Of a stretch of 64,000 nt of DNA, positions 5,057 to 12,342 are shown one piece after another. The DNA is taken from contig CP009479.1 in assembly GCA_000965745.1 (NCBI GenBank), positions 2,144,001 through 2,208,000 on the forward strand. Direction: 5' to 3'. This DNA comes from an uncultured archaeon (GTDB taxonomy: Archaea; Thermoplasmatota; Thermoplasmata; Thermoplasmatales; Thermoplasmataceae). Below the pieces are notes generated by a model that worked only from the letters and a program-made list of their open reading frames with translations, was not told the origin of the DNA and ran no database searches. Each line of letters begins with the position of its first letter. Position 1 is the first letter of the stretch. Both the position numbers and the translations under genes were made by a program.

Positions 5057-5129
5057 GGGCTCGTAGTCTAGTGGTTATGATACCGCCCTTACAAGGCGGT
5101 GGTCACCGGTTCAAATCCGGTCGGGCCCA
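5057..5129 (+). tRNA. tRNA-Val(TAC)
   Basis: Cloverleaf: acceptor GGGCTCG/CGGGCCC, anticodon arm CCGCC-CT-TAC-AA-GGCGG, T-loop TTCAAAT; CCA not encoded. Confidence 0.97.
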
Positions 5130-5777
5130 TTCACAATTACGTTTAGTTTTTTCTGAAATGCCCAGCTTATGCTTCCTACAGTATTTCTGCACCCATTCTC
5201 TTTCATCTTCATGTGATGGTGTATCCCCTTCCAGATATGAGATATTGATGTTCCAATCCACGCATGTAACTTCTTCGCCATGTCGCATTGTTGTGGGGAA
5301 CTTTGAATAATCAGGACCGTAAGGATCAGGCCTGAACGGTGCAATGCGATACCAGTCCAGTTTGCTATCCTTCTCATACATCTCTGGATTATGCTCTTTA
5401 TAATATTTTTCCCTGAGACTGCCAAGATACCATTTCAATGTTGAAGCAGATACACCCTTTTCACAGTTGAAATCATAATCACCTCTCAATTCATGGAAAT
5501 AATCCATAAGATTAGTCTTCCAATCATTATCCAATGGCTCTAAAGTGAATTCCTTTAGATCTTTGAAGTATTTGCCCATGAATTCCATTTCTACCAATCT
5601 ATCAGTTAGAACATCAAAGCCAGCGTAATCGATATCAGTAGGCCAATCATTCTTCTCGAATGGACCCTTGCGCAGTCTAACCTTATAGCCCAGTGGCCGA
5701 ATGATCCACTTTGCATCGCCGAAGGATTTCATGAATGAATAACCTGAAGAAGTAAATAAGGTTCCAGTGAGAATCAT
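5103..5777 (-). CDS. Hypothetical protein running antisense into tRNA-Val
   Basis: 224-aa ORF with natural composition; stop lies inside the tRNA. Confidence 0.6.
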   Translation of the reverse strand: MILTGTLFTSSGYSFMKSFGDAKWIIRPLGYKVRLRKGPFEKNDWPTDIDYAGFDVLTDRLVEMEFMGKYFKDLKEFTLEPLDNDWKTNLMDYFHELRGDYDFNCEKGVSASTLKWYLGSLREKYYKEHNPEMYEKDSKLDWYRIAPFRPDPYGPDYSKFPTTMRHGEEVTCVDWNINISYLEGDTPSHEDEREWVQKYCRKHKLGISEKTKRNCEWARPDLNR

Positions 5778-6333
5778 CGATTCATCATTGAAAGGCTGAT
5801 CGAAAAAGTTCAGTGTTATGAGAGATTTTATAGATTTGTTGAATAATCAGCATTATTAGAAAAGAGAATGTATGAAGGTTTTGCCCTTCATGTATATAGT
5901 CTCCTGATACCTTCATGCATGGAAGTGTCAAGAAATTTTTATCCAGAATCCTTTCAGCCTGCGATACCTGCACCTTTTCGTTGGAATAGCACTGAGATCG
6001 CATTAGTTTTGAAATTTTGAGATTGGTAATATGCACATGTAATATGGCAACTTGGTTTTGGAAGTAGTAAAAACAACAGAAACCGTTGGAAACCATTATT
6101 CGAACACTTTTGAAAACGCCTGGGTACGTTTCAATCGACTATAAGTCAAATGTGCGTTAGGACATTGAAATATAGCCCGTTAAAAGCCATTTGGCTCAAT
6201 GCTTTCAGATTGAATCGTTCTTTCAGAAAATGTGAATCTCCTAATTCCCATATGTGGAATCACCCGCATTTGACTTGATCCGTACGGTGCACACAAAACC
6301 CACCAACCAATCTTAATAAAAACTGGGCATATC

Positions 6334-6858
6334 TCAAGTTAGATCAATATGCTGTTTTAGGAACTCTTCAAATTCTCTAGTTCTGTTTTTCTTTCCCAGC
6401 CTGAATTTATAGCTTCTACCGAGTTCAAAACAAATCCAGTTCTTTTTTTTCGAAGACAGGACTTGCCAGCCAAACGAATAAGTGTTTGTGCTCAGCTCCA
6501 CATTTCTTATCATTTCGTAATTTCCCCTGAGTCTGATGCCACCAATACACTGGATAAAGTGGTCGTCGTAGAAATAGAAAGTTCCCTTGCGATGCCAGTC
6601 CAAGTAAAGACCGATACCTATGAAGATAAAAAGAACGAACATGGCTGCAAGTGCATCTTCAAAGTAAAACAGAATTGTTGAAGAAAAGCCTGCGTTTCCA
6701 AGAGGAATGTAAGCCTGCAGCATTATCCCTCCGGTTATGGATATGATTGAGATGAGGAAGAGGAATCCAACTGTCGAAAGTTTAATGCCGAGCATAAAGG
6801 CAGGCTTCTTTACACTGAACTCAGGCTTATACCTAATAAACGTCTTGGTAACAGGCAT
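6334..6858 (-). CDS. Hypothetical membrane protein (2 TM plus soluble, possibly PH-like, domain)
   Basis: Two hydrophobic helices then a beta-rich tail; TATA-like TATATACT upstream. Confidence 0.65.
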   Translation of the reverse strand: MPVTKTFIRYKPEFSVKKPAFMLGIKLSTVGFLFLISIISITGGIMLQAYIPLGNAGFSSTILFYFEDALAAMFVLFIFIGIGLYLDWHRKGTFYFYDDHFIQCIGGIRLRGNYEMIRNVELSTNTYSFGWQVLSSKKKNWICFELGRSYKFRLGKKNRTREFEEFLKQHIDLT

Positions 6859-7088
6859 AGATTAAATGAATTGCATAGTATATATAAGAATTGTTGCGGA
6901 ATTATTTTTGAGACATACACTTGCAAAAACCCAGATTAAAATAGCCTGAAGGATTGATCACATGCTCACCTGGCACATACCCATGTCTGCCATGTGATCT
7001 GAAAGGATTGCAGGGCCACCTTTTCATCTATCTATTTCAAGTCTTGGAATATATTTTACTGCCCGACACTGAGAATTCTTTATTGCAT

Positions 7089-7733
7089 CTAAAATTTGGA
7101 ACTAATTTTGAGAGCCAGCCTGAAAGACAGATACATAATAATTGGAAATGCAAAGTCCAAATCCAGTATACCAAAACCTCCAAAAACAGTAGGTTTTGTT
7201 AAGTAAGGTATACTTTCCACATCACTTACTACACCAACCAAGAATCCGAAGATATATGAGATTAGAGGACCAATTTTTCTAATGTCCATGGCAACCCATA
7301 GCCCTGCGAATCCTGGGACAACGATTAAGGCGGGAATATTTGGGCCTCCCCCATTTTTGTATATTGGCTTTAGCTGATTCCCACTTAGCATGGTGTATAA
7401 GGTGTCCAAAATAAGAACAACAATCAAAATTATGATGCTATATCGAAAAAATCTGTTCCCATTTGAGGTGTGAGTTGCTATTGCCTTTAAAGCGAAAACT
7501 ATGCTGATTGCCAAAGGAAAAAGGAATCCCAGAATATCTAAACTGACTTTAGAACCGAACAATAGAGGGGTGTTTAATTCAGACATTACACCCAAGAAAG
7601 AAGGGAAGAGTTCCTCAAACAACATTGTGACGAGCCCCAAAATTTTGTATGATAATAGGGAAAACATTGCAAATAATGCGATTCTCAATATGGTTACAAT
7701 GTTTTCATTCCAAACATTCTCGACTTTTCCCAT
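7089..7733 (-). CDS. Multi-pass membrane protein, DUF1614-like
   Basis: C-terminal GFLVGVVSD...FGGFGILDLDF resembles the DUF1614 GxLIGADL...IGGAGxFD pattern. Confidence 0.55.
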   Translation of the reverse strand: MGKVENVWNENIVTILRIALFAMFSLLSYKILGLVTMLFEELFPSFLGVMSELNTPLLFGSKVSLDILGFLFPLAISIVFALKAIATHTSNGNRFFRYSIIILIVVLILDTLYTMLSGNQLKPIYKNGGGPNIPALIVVPGFAGLWVAMDIRKIGPLISYIFGFLVGVVSDVESIPYLTKPTVFGGFGILDLDFAFPIIMYLSFRLALKISSKF

Positions 7734-7899
7734 AAGAACTACATGAAGTTATGTTGCCCAATCCTTATAGTTGATACTTATACTCACCAAAATAGTCCAC
7801 AATCGAAATGAAGTGTCTCAACTGGAATTTGGTCAAATCAGGATTTTTTCAATATTTGGAAGTTAATGGGCCCTGAGTTGTTACGTCATCGGATCCTCA

Positions 7900-8214
7900 T
7901 CAATCATCATATTCTCCGTCTTCAAGGATCCATTTGGCTCCTTTCGCTATATCTTTAAGCTTTCTCCAGGCAAGTTCTTCCTTCCTGATTGCAATCTTTT
8001 CTCGCTCGATATCCTCATTGGGCAGGTTACTTCTCTTTAAAGCCTTCTGTAAGAGATTGTTTTGTTTCTTAACGACCTTAAGGTATTCCATTATTCCTTC
8101 TGCGACATCCTTTTCATGCTTAATTTTGAGTCTCAAATCGAAGTACGCGATGAGTACCAATACAACTGAAACGGTTAAAGAAATAATTGAGAGTATAAGG
8201 CTAACTGAAGTCAT
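7900..8214 (-). CDS. Hypothetical single-TM coiled-coil protein
   Basis: N-terminal TM helix from ATG 8214 followed by a charged helical region. Confidence 0.6.
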   Translation of the reverse strand: MTSVSLILSIISLTVSVVLVLIAYFDLRLKIKHEKDVAEGIMEYLKVVKKQNNLLQKALKRSNLPNEDIEREKIAIRKEELAWRKLKDIAKGAKWILEDGEYDD

Positions 8215-8605
8215 ATAATTCTGTAACAAGCTGAGTGAAAATACTTTTGTTTGATTTGTTAAACCTCTGAGATCAACACAGACCCCAGAGAAAGCATTTT
8301 CAGGCATCATCCGTTCAAAAGGCATGGGCAACTATGCCCTGAACCTTGGAATGATGGGCTTAGACCAAATTATTGAAGTTGTGGATATTTATCAGAAGTG
8401 ACTGGCTTATTAGGCAAGTGTACCTTTCGGAGCATGTATTCTGTTGGATTTGGCAAAATTTTGTCAAAACTTGATCTGGCAGAATGGCTATTTTACTGTG
8501 TTTCAAACTGTACTAACCATATATAATTTAATATGGTTAAGCCATCTCTGGAGTGCCTGTAATGGCTGATTTGCCATTTTGTGTTTTGCCAGATTGATTG
8601 CAGAA

Positions 8606-9436
8606 TCAGAGAAATACTACTTCCAAATTGTAGTCTTCTAAAATTTCAACATTGGTTTTTTTCGCTATTTCATCTTCTTCCCCGAAATAGTTGGTTATGC
8701 AGTATGTTGGAATCTTCCTTCTGCTTCTCAATGGATATTCAAAGTATTCACTCATCATCAGGATCTGAAGTTCCTTCTTCACCCTTTTGCTGTGATTCTT
8801 TGCAACTTTCAGCCCATGTGCCTGCTTATCTGGGTAAAGGTATCCATTGAACTTGTTGTGTTCGCCTGAGATCCAGTTTCCATAGATGATAAGGAACTTC
8901 TCGTTTTCTGCCATGTCTGTGCCTGTCGAATTGTTGCCAAAATCAATCATCCTTAGATAATCCCACTTTGTGCTGTGCAATGCCTTCTGGATTCTCTTCC
9001 TGGTTGGCTCATCAAATCTTATGAGTTCTTGCATCAGCTCTTCTGGCTTCATACCTCTTACTGTTTTTATCCATTCTTCCAATGATTTGAAAGTGATGAG
9101 AAGGCCATGCTGGCTGTTGTATTTTGAAGTGATTTCAGCGATCTGTCTGTCAATCCTCAGGAATTCTTCAAATGTGTTCAGGTCCATGCTGTCCTTCTTG
9201 AACACATCATTAATGCGTGTGATATTGACAGGGGTCCAAGGCTCCTTAACATAAACTTTCCACTTGTCATCTGGATAATTGCAGTCTTCACTTTGGAATG
9301 TTGCATCTTGCCTTGTGCCATTTGTATGGTACTGTTTCAATTCCAGGTTCTGCCGTCCTGTTAAGAAGCATATAAAAGAGGACCTGAAGTTTACGCTGCA
9401 GAATGGGATTCTTTCGCATTCTGGCCATTGAAGCAA
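8606..9436 (-). pseudogene. Hypothetical protein, probably a 5'-truncated remnant
   Basis: About 230 natural-looking C-terminal residues but no convincing start; abuts the PolB fragment. Confidence 0.5.
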
Positions 9437-9441
9437 TGATT

Positions 9442-9866
9442 TTCTTTGCCTATGTATCTGATTCTGTTTGCAAATACACGTTTTCTTCGTGCTATGTTGT
9501 CAATGTAATCGAATTTGTTATCGTTATGCCTCACGTATGCTATTAACACTTCTTCAAGGGCTTTCCAGTATTCTTTAGAGGGCAAAGGCAATTCACTTGA
9601 GGATTTTCCAGAACGGTAATCAATGAATTCCTTGTACTGAATTCCGTTAATATCCCTTGAAAATGGTAATGATGGAATAGCATTATTTTTCTCAGACCCT
9701 ACAAGAATGGAATTGAAGGGCTTTATCTGTTTATTCAGGGGCTTATCGTGATTCATTTTCTTGAAGCGGTTTAGAATCGACGGTTTAGAACGGTGATTTG
9801 CGATACAGCTATTTTATCAGAATAATTTACAAATTTCTTGTTCAGGATGTCTTTTCAAATCTCCTT
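9442..9866 (-). pseudogene. C-terminal fragment of a casposon-type family B DNA polymerase
   Basis: Reconstructed KEI*KDILNKKFVNYSDKIAVSQIT/SKPSILNRFKKMN..QIKPFNSILVG..EYWKALEEVL..YVRHNDNKF..RIRYIGKE; in-frame TGA at 9855-9857, frameshift near 9790. Confidence 0.65.
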
Positions 9867-10184
9867 TCCTTCTGTCTCTTTGAGGTGGCCCAAGGGGGCT
9901 TTGTTATATCTCGGTTCTCGACCTGTTCTTCCTCTTTGCTTTGCTCACGTCAGGGCTGGCTGTGTATCTTACAGTGCTCTAACGTGCTCTTCCTTTGATT
10001 TTTTTCTCACTAAATTTATTCCGATAACCATGGGAATAAGACTTAAAAGTATGTATCTGATAAAGCGAATTTCCCATCTAAAGCTCCCTATCTGGTTCAT
10101 CTGCTCGAATATCCTCATCTGCTCTCCAACGATATTTCCCTGCATTTACAACTTATTAGCATAATAAAAGGATGGTCTCCACCA

Positions 10185-11000
10185 TCAAATCAGTAATTTC
10201 AATATGTGGGAAAGTAATATTGTGGGCTGGTCCTCCATTACAAGGTGACCCGATTCAGCAATTTGGACAAATTCTGAGTCCTTTATTGCATTATTCAATT
10301 TATGTCCCTTCTCTATGGGAATCCAGCTATCCTCCTCTCCCCATACAATCAATACAGTGGTCCGGATGGTAGTATATTCGTTCTCTATCTCATCTGTGTA
10401 TTTCTGACTGGACTGAGCAATTTGACGATAAAATGCAGGCTGACCTGTTGGACCAAGCCAAGGTTCTATAAGCCCGTTTAAGGTTTTCTCATCAACTGAT
10501 TTGTATTTGGCACCTAGGACATAAGTTGATATTAGCGCTTTGTGAATGTAGGGCGGGATATTTTTAAAGGCATTTTCGTAACTTTTCACATGTGTGAAAA
10601 AATCCGACCCCCATGGAGCAATTGCTACAGGGTCGATTAGAATGATCTTATCAAAAGACCTTCCGTCTAACAAGTGTGCCCGTAGAATAGTGGTTCCACC
10701 AAAGTCATGGCCTATGGCCACTGGGGCCTCCAGGCCCCAGTAGTCCAGGAGTTCGCAGAAAACCTTGTTCTGAACTCCGAGGGATACGTCACCAATCCTT
10801 TTTTCAGATGCTCCATATCCTAACAAATCATAATAATAAACCTTAAACCACTGGCTCAATGGAGGGATTAAGTGCCTCCAACTGAAAGAAGACCAGGGCG
10901 TACCATGAACAAGAACAATCGGAGAGCCGCCGCCCTTAATGTCGTAAGCTATTTCTCCAAATGATGATTGGAATCGCCTTTCAGGCCCTAATTGTTGCAT
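10185..11000 (-). CDS. Alpha/beta hydrolase (epoxide hydrolase/dehalogenase-like)
   Basis: HGTPWSS oxyanion motif, DLLGYGAS, GHDFGG nucleophile elbow, C-terminal SGH. Confidence 0.9.
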   Translation of the reverse strand: MQQLGPERRFQSSFGEIAYDIKGGGSPIVLVHGTPWSSFSWRHLIPPLSQWFKVYYYDLLGYGASEKRIGDVSLGVQNKVFCELLDYWGLEAPVAIGHDFGGTTILRAHLLDGRSFDKIILIDPVAIAPWGSDFFTHVKSYENAFKNIPPYIHKALISTYVLGAKYKSVDEKTLNGLIEPWLGPTGQPAFYRQIAQSSQKYTDEIENEYTTIRTTVLIVWGEEDSWIPIEKGHKLNNAIKDSEFVQIAESGHLVMEDQPTILLSHILKLLI

Positions 11001-11498
11001 TCAGTAGTTCACCCTTCTTTTCCGTTACCTTTCAACTTCTATTTACATATAACAATTGTGCCCGCATATGACGGCTATACGTTATCATTCATAGCCTTTG
11101 GAATTCCTTCCCTGACCCTTATCTATCGCACTCTGTTATCTACTGCCTTGATAACTATATTATCATGAATATAGTGAGTGGAGATATGCAAATGTGCTAA
11201 GGACACCATTGGAAATACATTTGACCTCTGTCATGCGGTCCATGAGGGAAATCTCCTTGGGAGTCCTTCCAGCTACGAATATCTGGTAGAAATTTGAGAC
11301 TAAATGTGATGTTCGACTCAGTGCTTTAATAGAGGCTTCTGTCCACGCGAGATTCTGAATTGCTGTAATGAACAAGTATAGAAAGATAGATTACAGGGTC
11401 AGGATAGCCTACGTACCTTCCGACAGTAGAAATGGAATAGCACGATGTCTTCAACTATGGAATAAGGTATTTTCTGAAAGAACCCTGAGAAAGACTTG

Positions 11499-11532
11499 CT
11501 TACAAGGTTCATTAAGTCCGGTCGGGCCCATT
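11499..11532 (+). repeat. Decayed duplicate of the tRNA-Val 3' half (attR/TSD-like)
   Basis: 11517-11532 identical to 5116-5131; 11499-11507 CTTACAAGG identical to the anticodon region 5088-5096. Confidence 0.85.
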
Positions 11533-11586: not shown

Positions 11587-12342
11587 TCATACCATTTGGC
11601 CTGCAAACACCTTGGTTTCATGTTCCATTCTGACCCATTTCCCTTTCTTGTTCTCCTTGAAAGCCTTATCGAATGCTTTTAGCAATTTCCCATACTTTGG
11701 ATTGCTGCTCGCCATAGCATAAGGCGCTGAGAAATACCTTCCCTTCAATGCTTCAAGATTCATTTCCTGCGGATTCGGTAGTGAGAATTTTCTTACTTCA
11801 TGGCCAAAGAAACCCACTATATCATCGTTTGACAGTCCAGTACTTCCGGAGGAATGGTATCCCTCGCTATATTTACGGCATATCTCCTCATAAGCTGCGT
11901 TAATTCCAGTGCTTTTGGCAACACGGTCGTTCCATACGAGAATCAAAACACCATTTTCAGTGAGTATCCGCTTAAATTCCTCCCTGGCAGCCTCTAGATC
12001 GAACCAGTGGAACGCCTGGCCAACAACTATGAATTCCACTGAGCTGTCAGGGAGCCCTGTATGTTCAGCACTTCCATCCATTAAGACAGCTTCCGGATAG
12101 CCAGACAGGTCCTTTTTTGCCGCCTCCCGCATCTCCCGGTTCGGCTCTATGCAGAATACTTTATTGCCATTTTCCAGAAACAGTCTTGCCAGCTTTCCCG
12201 TGCCGGATCCTATGTCGGCGATTGCTGATTCGTCACCCATATTGAACTCCAGCTTTATGACTGAGAGCAGATCTGCTGGGTAATCCGGTCTGTAAAGTGA
12301 GTAATTCGAGGATCGCCCGTCAAAACGGTTCTCATCTTTCAT
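11587..12342 (-). CDS. Class I SAM-dependent methyltransferase
   Basis: YRPDYP, ADIGSGTG, QAFHWFD motifs; likely start MKDENRF at 12342 rather than 12636. Confidence 0.9.
   Translation of the reverse strand: MKDENRFDGRSSNYSLYRPDYPADLLSVIKLEFNMGDESAIADIGSGTGKLARLFLENGNKVFCIEPNREMREAAKKDLSGYPEAVLMDGSAEHTGLPDSSVEFIVVGQAFHWFDLEAAREEFKRILTENGVLILVWNDRVAKSTGINAAYEEICRKYSEGYHSSGSTGLSNDDIVGFFGHEVRKFSLPNPQEMNLEALKGRYFSAPYAMASSNPKYGKLLKAFDKAFKENKKGKWVRMEHETKVFAGQMV

Follow-up and report, generated by a model that had tools for sequence, protein, structure and literature searches.

A decayed casposon-type DNA polymerase fragment in a tRNA-Val-associated island of an uncultured Thermoplasmata archaeon

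Behind a tRNA-Val(TAC) gene of an uncultured Thermoplasmata archaeon lies an island of low GC content and 6.4 kb in length (5132-11532; coordinates are positions in the window, the 64,000-nt stretch of DNA that was analysed, unless marked as genome). It contains a block of orphan ORFs, a frameshifted orphan gene, a short remnant of a family B DNA polymerase (PolB) gene and a hydrolase gene, and is bounded by copies of a 16-nt direct repeat. These features are collected in Table 1 together with two related casposons, one in another genus and one in the genome to which the window belongs.

Table 1. Features of the island and of two related casposons
Feature	Coordinates	Strand or location	Description
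tRNA-Val(TAC) gene	5057-5129	plus	Predicted with ARAGORN; integration hot spot
Left copy of the 16-nt direct repeat TCCGGTCGGGCCCATT	5116-5131	plus	Left island border; k-mer search and local alignment
Orphan ORFs of 224, 174, 214 and 143 aa	5132-8605	minus	About 38-40% GC
Frameshifted orphan gene	8606-9428	minus	Abuts the fossil; ATG at 9428
ORF of 121 aa	9391-9756	minus	Open reading frame inside the distal PolB piece
PolB fossil, distal piece	9436-9789	minus	Residues 677-794; 91/118 identical (77%); without a stop codon
PolB fossil, proximal piece	9789-9911	minus	Residues 636-676; 26/41 identical (63%)
Alpha/beta-hydrolase gene, 271 aa	10185-11000	minus	Island cargo
Right att-like copy	11499-11532	plus	16-nt repeat at 11517-11532 and anticodon-loop 9-mer CTTACAAGG at 11499-11507, with an internal deletion
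Intact casposon, ~11.8 kb	L025:376-12175	G018 (Thermoplasmata MAG LSA5.bin55, another genus)	Directly after tRNA-Val(TAC)
Second casposon, ~13.2 kb	Genome 2,216,927 to end and 1 to ~3,415 (L012:4918-14688 and L026:1-3415)	Genome of the window	After tRNA-Pro(GGG)

The polymerase remnant was delimited by tblastn onto the window with the intact 883-aa protein of G018, which served as the reference for both pieces. Two adjacent matches in different frames were obtained, with a joint E-value of 2e-63, and together they span 9436-9911 on the minus strand, that is, about 0.5 kb or some 159 of 883 codons (18% of polB). A first-pass annotation of the window had proposed that the 121-aa ORF extends upstream over a frameshift and an in-frame TGA, and had placed the whole at 9442-9866. 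The location was right and the extent slightly short; the observation itself was correct in detail, since the two-frame tblastn pieces, a 1-nt deletion and a TGA at an invariant tryptophan all agree with it. Alignment of the fossil DNA with three relatives located the deletion in a T run at about 9789-9790, where GTTC is found instead of the GTTTC of intact genes. The TGA (9855-9857, minus strand) stands at the position of W654, which is tryptophan in 25 of 25 aligned homologues. A direct repeat had also been noted near 9790. The decamer CGGTTTAGAA does occur twice there, at 9768-9777 and 9782-9791, with the deletion at its edge, but it is largely native coding sequence and no duplication is involved.

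The 121-aa ORF begins at an internal methionine and ends in a 13-aa tail that has no PolB homology. In a search of 60 related genomes, its residues 1-108 match the C-terminal part of far longer frames with 44-76% identity, including the 883-aa gene of G018 and a 904-aa gene of G041. Searches with the ORF in Pfam, PHROGs and NCBIfam gave nothing significant. We assign the fossil to the PolB family on the basis of its 77% identity to residues 677-794, and the earlier placement of the remnant in the C-terminal region of a PolB is borne out by its correspondence to residues 636-794 of 883. The fossil starts just past the KxY motif and has none of the catalytic motifs; it covers the last strand of the palm and the region that follows, which we take to be the thumb, up to residue 794. 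Sixteen of 17 family-invariant residues are retained in the distal piece, and five of the six invariant residues that were lost fall within the 41 codons upstream of the frameshift.

PolB homology stops abruptly at about 9436-9446. The adjoining gene is itself frameshifted near 9294-9301, so that the first-pass description of a break into "another gene remnant" is fair: a 279-aa homologue aligns through its residues 1-45 with 9428-9294 and, in another frame, through its residues 46-279 with 9301-8609. A search of 5.8 billion proteins gave just three homologues of this gene (244-330 aa, no Pfam match). A gene with weak resemblance to AAA/RuvB-like proteins lies near one of them (L111).

The intact 883-aa homologue is a family B DNA polymerase, as its motifs, a profile search of the PDB and an AF2 model indicate in common. 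The features considered were Exo I-III, motifs A (DxxSLYPS), B (KxxxNSxYG) and C (YxDTDS), KxY and the PolB fold. The consensus of 25 diverse homologues contains DxE, DFTSMYPT, KIIANATSYG, YCDTDS and KRY, and thus all the exonuclease and polymerase motifs, and a profile built from these homologues matched solely PolBs in the PDB, at about 1e-4; a PDB search with the single intact sequence was uninformative. The AF2 model (mean pLDDT 85, pTM 0.82) matched PolBs only in Foldseek comparisons, among them the phi29, pol alpha, RB69 and E. coli Pol II polymerases, with E-values of about 1e-13 to 1e-11 and a probability of 1.0. In this model, a disordered linker (794-806) is followed by a C-terminal four-helix domain (815-868), which the fossil lacks because it ends at residue 794. 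The 883- and 904-aa proteins have no match in Pfam or NCBIfam, and PHROGs gave weak matches to DNA polymerases at the N-terminal exonuclease part of these proteins. More than 2500 proteins belong to the family; most are recorded publicly as "hypothetical protein", and a few have a precomputed PF00136 or PF03175 assignment.

Casposons are self-replicating transposons driven by Cas1, which acts as their "casposase"; characteristic of all families are a Cas1 gene linked to polB, terminal inverted repeats and a duplication of 14-15 bp at the target site. The relatives of the fossil are casposon polymerases. The PolB family is encoded at 77 genome loci; Cas1 was counted at the 58 whose upstream flank reaches 5 kb or more, and polB is linked to it at 56 of these, with a spacing of 2-4 kb and HNH and HTH genes in between. 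At both intact loci, an HNH nuclease, an HTH protein and a small ORF are found upstream of polB, and a winged-helix protein and a 404-413-aa Cas1 (PF01867, E-values of 1e-57 and 1e-63) are encoded on the opposite strand. The HNH nuclease located between Cas1 and PolB matches Pfam at 3e-4 and PHROG at 4e-6, and the HTH genes of the relatives encode a 216-aa HTH protein (a weak match), homologues of which occur in most PolB loci, and a 209-aa HxlR-type winged-helix protein. The closest relatives whose context was examined (P0001, P0004 and P0005, 77-80% identical) all have Cas1, HNH and HTH neighbours; two of them, P0004 and P0005, are the closest metagenomic relatives, with 78-80% identity in the fragment and the same gene order with Cas1.

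These loci occur in Thermoplasmata, Cuniculiplasmataceae, Oxyplasma, Micrarchaeota, Nitrosotalea, Nitrosopumilus, Methanolobus, Methanococcoides, Methanosarcina and some bacteria. The tRNA genes targeted are Val(TAC) in G018 and Pro(GGG) for the second copy in the genome studied here, and a tRNA-Ile(GAT) gene is found near the polB loci of Oxyplasma and Cuniculiplasmataceae. In the 1.68-Mb genome of Oxyplasma meridianum M1 (G009; L003, L013 and L045), there are six PolB fragments and a partial Cas1, one case being beside tRNA-Ile(GAT).

The first-pass annotation had likened the remnant to the polymerases of family 2 casposons, a likeness that the Cas1, HNH and HTH neighbours of its relatives uphold. 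Family 2 elements comprise Cas1, PolB, HNH and two HTH proteins, and their target duplication overlaps the 4-7 terminal nt of a tRNA gene (PMC4046053; PMC6563490). When compared through this published layout, the five-gene core of AciBoo-C1 of Aciduliprofundum boonei, NitNCS1-C1 of Nitrosotalea and the elements of Methanosarcinales is that of the fragment's intact relatives. These also resemble family 2 in having terminal inverted repeats and a 14-bp duplication over the last 4 nt of a tRNA gene (PMC4046053; PMC6563490), in carrying restriction or methylase cargo, and in their hosts, which include Nitrosotalea, Methanolobus, Methanococcoides and Methanosarcina; as to the tRNA targets, the Thermoplasmata clade is found at tRNA-Val, tRNA-Pro and tRNA-Ile. 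C-terminal HTH fusions of Cas1 and PolB define family 2. The Cas1 proteins of the intact relatives continue for about 100 residues past the Cas1 domain, but no HTH was detected by Pfam in the C-terminal tails of Cas1 or PolB, and these tails are mutually dissimilar by BLASTP. In contrast to a family 2 casposon, the window holds only 18% of a polB gene and no other part of such an element.

An intact casposon encoding PolB and Cas1 was found in a related genus among the tRNA-Val(TAC) loci of relatives. The inverted ends of this element, in G018, begin with GGGGATATAGATAAGG and can be aligned for roughly 80-95 bp; its 14-bp target duplication is CCCATTAATTATTT, the first four bases of which are the last 4 nt of the tRNA. 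Its cargo consists of an Mrr endonuclease and an 897-aa Eco57I/MmeI-like restriction-methylase. The tRNA-Val gene of the window is 100% identical to that of G018 over 76 nt by blastn, and polB has the same orientation relative to it in both genomes, while the distance between the two is 4.3 kb in the window versus 2.0-2.5 kb in G018. The second casposon, about 9 kb past the end of the window, spans the contig origin. It has the same inverted ends as the G018 element (starting with GGGGATATAGATAAGG) and a 14-bp duplication, CCCATCATATTCAT; its Cas1, HNH, HTH and Mrr genes are intact, and an IS3-family insertion (orfA HTH_Tnp_1, orfB rve) interrupts its polB. The sole casposon-type Cas1 of the genome is that of this element (genome 2,223,652-2,224,914). 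The two casposons share 84% DNA identity and lie at different tRNAs, so closely related casposases can have different targets; the casposases themselves are 83% identical and the ends near-identical. A Cas1-less relative as the source of the remnant, which the first-pass annotation had offered as an option, is unlikely given Cas1 at 56 of the 58 loci and beside the closest relatives, and an intact element with both genes at tRNA-Val(TAC).

The island as a whole is another matter. The 16-nt repeat TCCGGTCGGGCCCATT that bounds it lies with 14 nt inside the tRNA 3′ end and only 2 nt past the tRNA, and is therefore of the integrase att type and not a casposon duplication. A repeat of the tRNA 3′ end together with an anticodon-loop segment is typical of the att sites of tyrosine integrases. 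With the exception of the hydrolase, the island ORFs have no significant match in Pfam, PHROGs or NCBIfam, and no integrase is recognisable among them. The four orphan ORFs match no family, and none of the casposon loci examined has a counterpart of them; relatives of the 224-aa and 276-aa ORFs are lacking in 60 related genomes bar one weak match, and the protein atlas had nothing for the 224-aa ORF. As for the hydrolase, close relatives of the archaeon have only paralogues of about 30% identity elsewhere in the genome, and no orthologue. The first of the orphan ORFs, that of 224 aa (5103-5777, minus strand), runs from the island over the att core and into tRNA-Val, antisense to it. Its C-terminus is a junction artefact, since its last 20 or so codons come from the trailer and 3′ end of the tRNA. 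We considered this ORF as a split SSV-type integrase and rejected it, as there is no family match and circularisation would add only 37 codons.

Neither Cas1 (by tblastn) nor HNH and HTH genes were found in the island, and searches of the window gave no casposon inverted end (blastn-short and inverted-repeat search) and no casposon-type target duplication. When the whole island was compared by tblastx with about 90 casposon loci, the PolB piece alone was matched, and the other island segments are not repeated elsewhere in the genome. Thus, of the earlier proposal that the island is the relic of a self-synthesizing element, the casposon polB piece stands, but the claim for the island as a whole is weakened by the small casposon-derived share (about 0.5 of 6.4 kb), the integrase-type repeat and the lack of an inverted end. 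The island is a mosaic of integrase type. It resembles the integrase-type tRNA islands of other archaea in its distal repeat of the tRNA 3′ end, low GC content, orphan cargo and a content that differs among close relatives, and differs from them in having no recognisable integrase and a distal att copy with an internal deletion, for which reasons it is probably immobile.

The tRNA-Val site is a hot spot whose content turns over rapidly. In a genome of the same genus (G002), about 1 kb separates tRNA-Val from a methyltransferase gene, versus 6.5 kb in the window, and synteny with this genome restarts at 11600, near the start of that gene. Another genome of the genus, that of a sister species (G001; L031:421-6108), has a type I restriction system (HsdM, HsdS and HsdR) at its tRNA-Val locus, where no casposon and no recognisable integrase were found. 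Directly behind the tRNA, about 31 nt are common to this locus and the window (5132-5162), possibly owing to related arms of the elements or to a trailer that both have.

The Nei-Gojobori method gives a dN/dS of 0.12-0.17 for the distal piece against intact copies and of 0.125 for the G018 gene against the second copy in the genome of the window. Since the ratio for the fragment is close to that for the latter pair, the death of the gene is fairly recent, and most of the divergence is older than the inactivation. The stretch was found in eight soil-metagenome DNA runs from two studies, with no RNA runs listed beside them. A metagenome contig with 99.5% identity over 2091 bp has the same TGA and the same frameshift; being so similar overall, it is mute on selection.

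It is very likely, in our view, that 9436-9911 (minus strand) is a dead polB fragment of a family-2-type casposon that was once inserted at this tRNA-Val gene and decayed by deletions. In an intact element of this type, the Cas1 casposase inserts DNA flanked by inverted repeats just past a tRNA gene, with a 14-bp duplication, and the element's own PolB copies that DNA. Most likely, a casposon of the lineage of G018 and the second copy once occupied this tRNA-Val gene in the orientation seen in G018. Deletions would then have taken the N-terminal 635 codons, the HNH and HTH genes, Cas1 and both ends, leaving the fragment bordered on both sides by unrelated DNA, and the 1-nt deletion and a TGG-to-TGA change would represent the final inactivation. 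That the casposon decayed in place, as opposed to arriving as a fragment on another element, is something we infer, as is the order of events. The position of the fossil in the island requires at least three separate events. A simple history with the casposon first and an integrase element later misfits the location of the fragment inside the att-bounded segment. In the simplest consistent order, an integrase element would have integrated, leaving the distal att copy and the hydrolase; a casposon would next have inserted at the tRNA end; and deletions and at least one more insertion would have followed. Several points speak against the favoured reading: the other genes and the ends of the casposon are gone, the distance to the tRNA differs from that in G018, and the fragment lies within att bounds. 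The low dN/dS and the retained invariant residues would also fit a preserved 121-aa ORF.

We think it unlikely that the history was a hybrid one, in which a casposon-type PolB was carried by an integrase-mobilised element or a casposon inserted in the tRNA-like att site of such an element. If this were true, the competition of casposons and tyrosine-integrase elements for one and the same tRNA 3′ end would lead to exchanges of DNA between them.

There is a rather small chance that the fragment derives from an integrase-mobilised element (a plasmid, a provirus or a cryptic element) or was brought in by one, the polymerase being either the element's own Cas1-less casposon-type PolB or a casposon fragment that it had picked up prior to its integration at tRNA-Val. 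Family-2-like PolBs are in fact known from a thaumarchaeal ICE (NitEve-E6) and from an integrase element of Ignisphaera (PMC4046053; PMC6563490), and the repeat of the tRNA 3′ end and the decayed anticodon-loop 9-mer enclose the fragment as such an origin would predict. Nevertheless, the island has no recognisable integrase, its other genes are absent from every PolB locus, and Cas1 accompanies the family at 56 of 58 loci and all of the 77-80% identical relatives whose context was examined.

Less likely than the hybrid history, and indeed very improbable, is that the 121-aa ORF is alive, a part of the polymerase that was kept by exaptation and is made as a small protein: it is open, keeps all but one of the invariant residues, has a dN/dS of about 0.15 and is unchanged in metagenome contigs of two studies, but divergence before the gene broke explains the low ratio, the start is an internal methionine and the non-homologous tail a product of the junction, both neighbours are pseudogenes too, and we know of no activity for a polymerase fragment that is without the catalytic motifs and most of the palm.

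The fossil that very probably remains from a casposon inserted here is, then, nothing out of the ordinary: one more decayed copy from a class of elements already known. Fragmented or inactivated casposons with a broken polB are frequent; for example, NitNCS1-C1 has a split polB (PMC6563490), casposon-associated genes have been noted in "E-plasma" (PMC10354927), and the IS3-split second copy and the six fragments of O. meridianum are further cases. Casposon debris seems common in the archaeal family of O. meridianum. Compared with the broken casposons already described, decay in the window has gone further, to a lone 0.5-kb piece in foreign DNA.

By itself, the fossil is junk DNA, and its value lies in the relatives to which it led: a clade of family-2-type casposons in acidophilic Thermoplasmata, the polymerase of which is missed by Pfam and NCBIfam in the representatives searched. 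The locus also shows the speed at which a tRNA hot spot is overwritten. The G018 element, the second copy with its intact casposase and the fossil form a natural series from active to extinct, and the casposase pair, closely similar in sequence and ends and directed to different tRNAs, could be used for studies of site choice.
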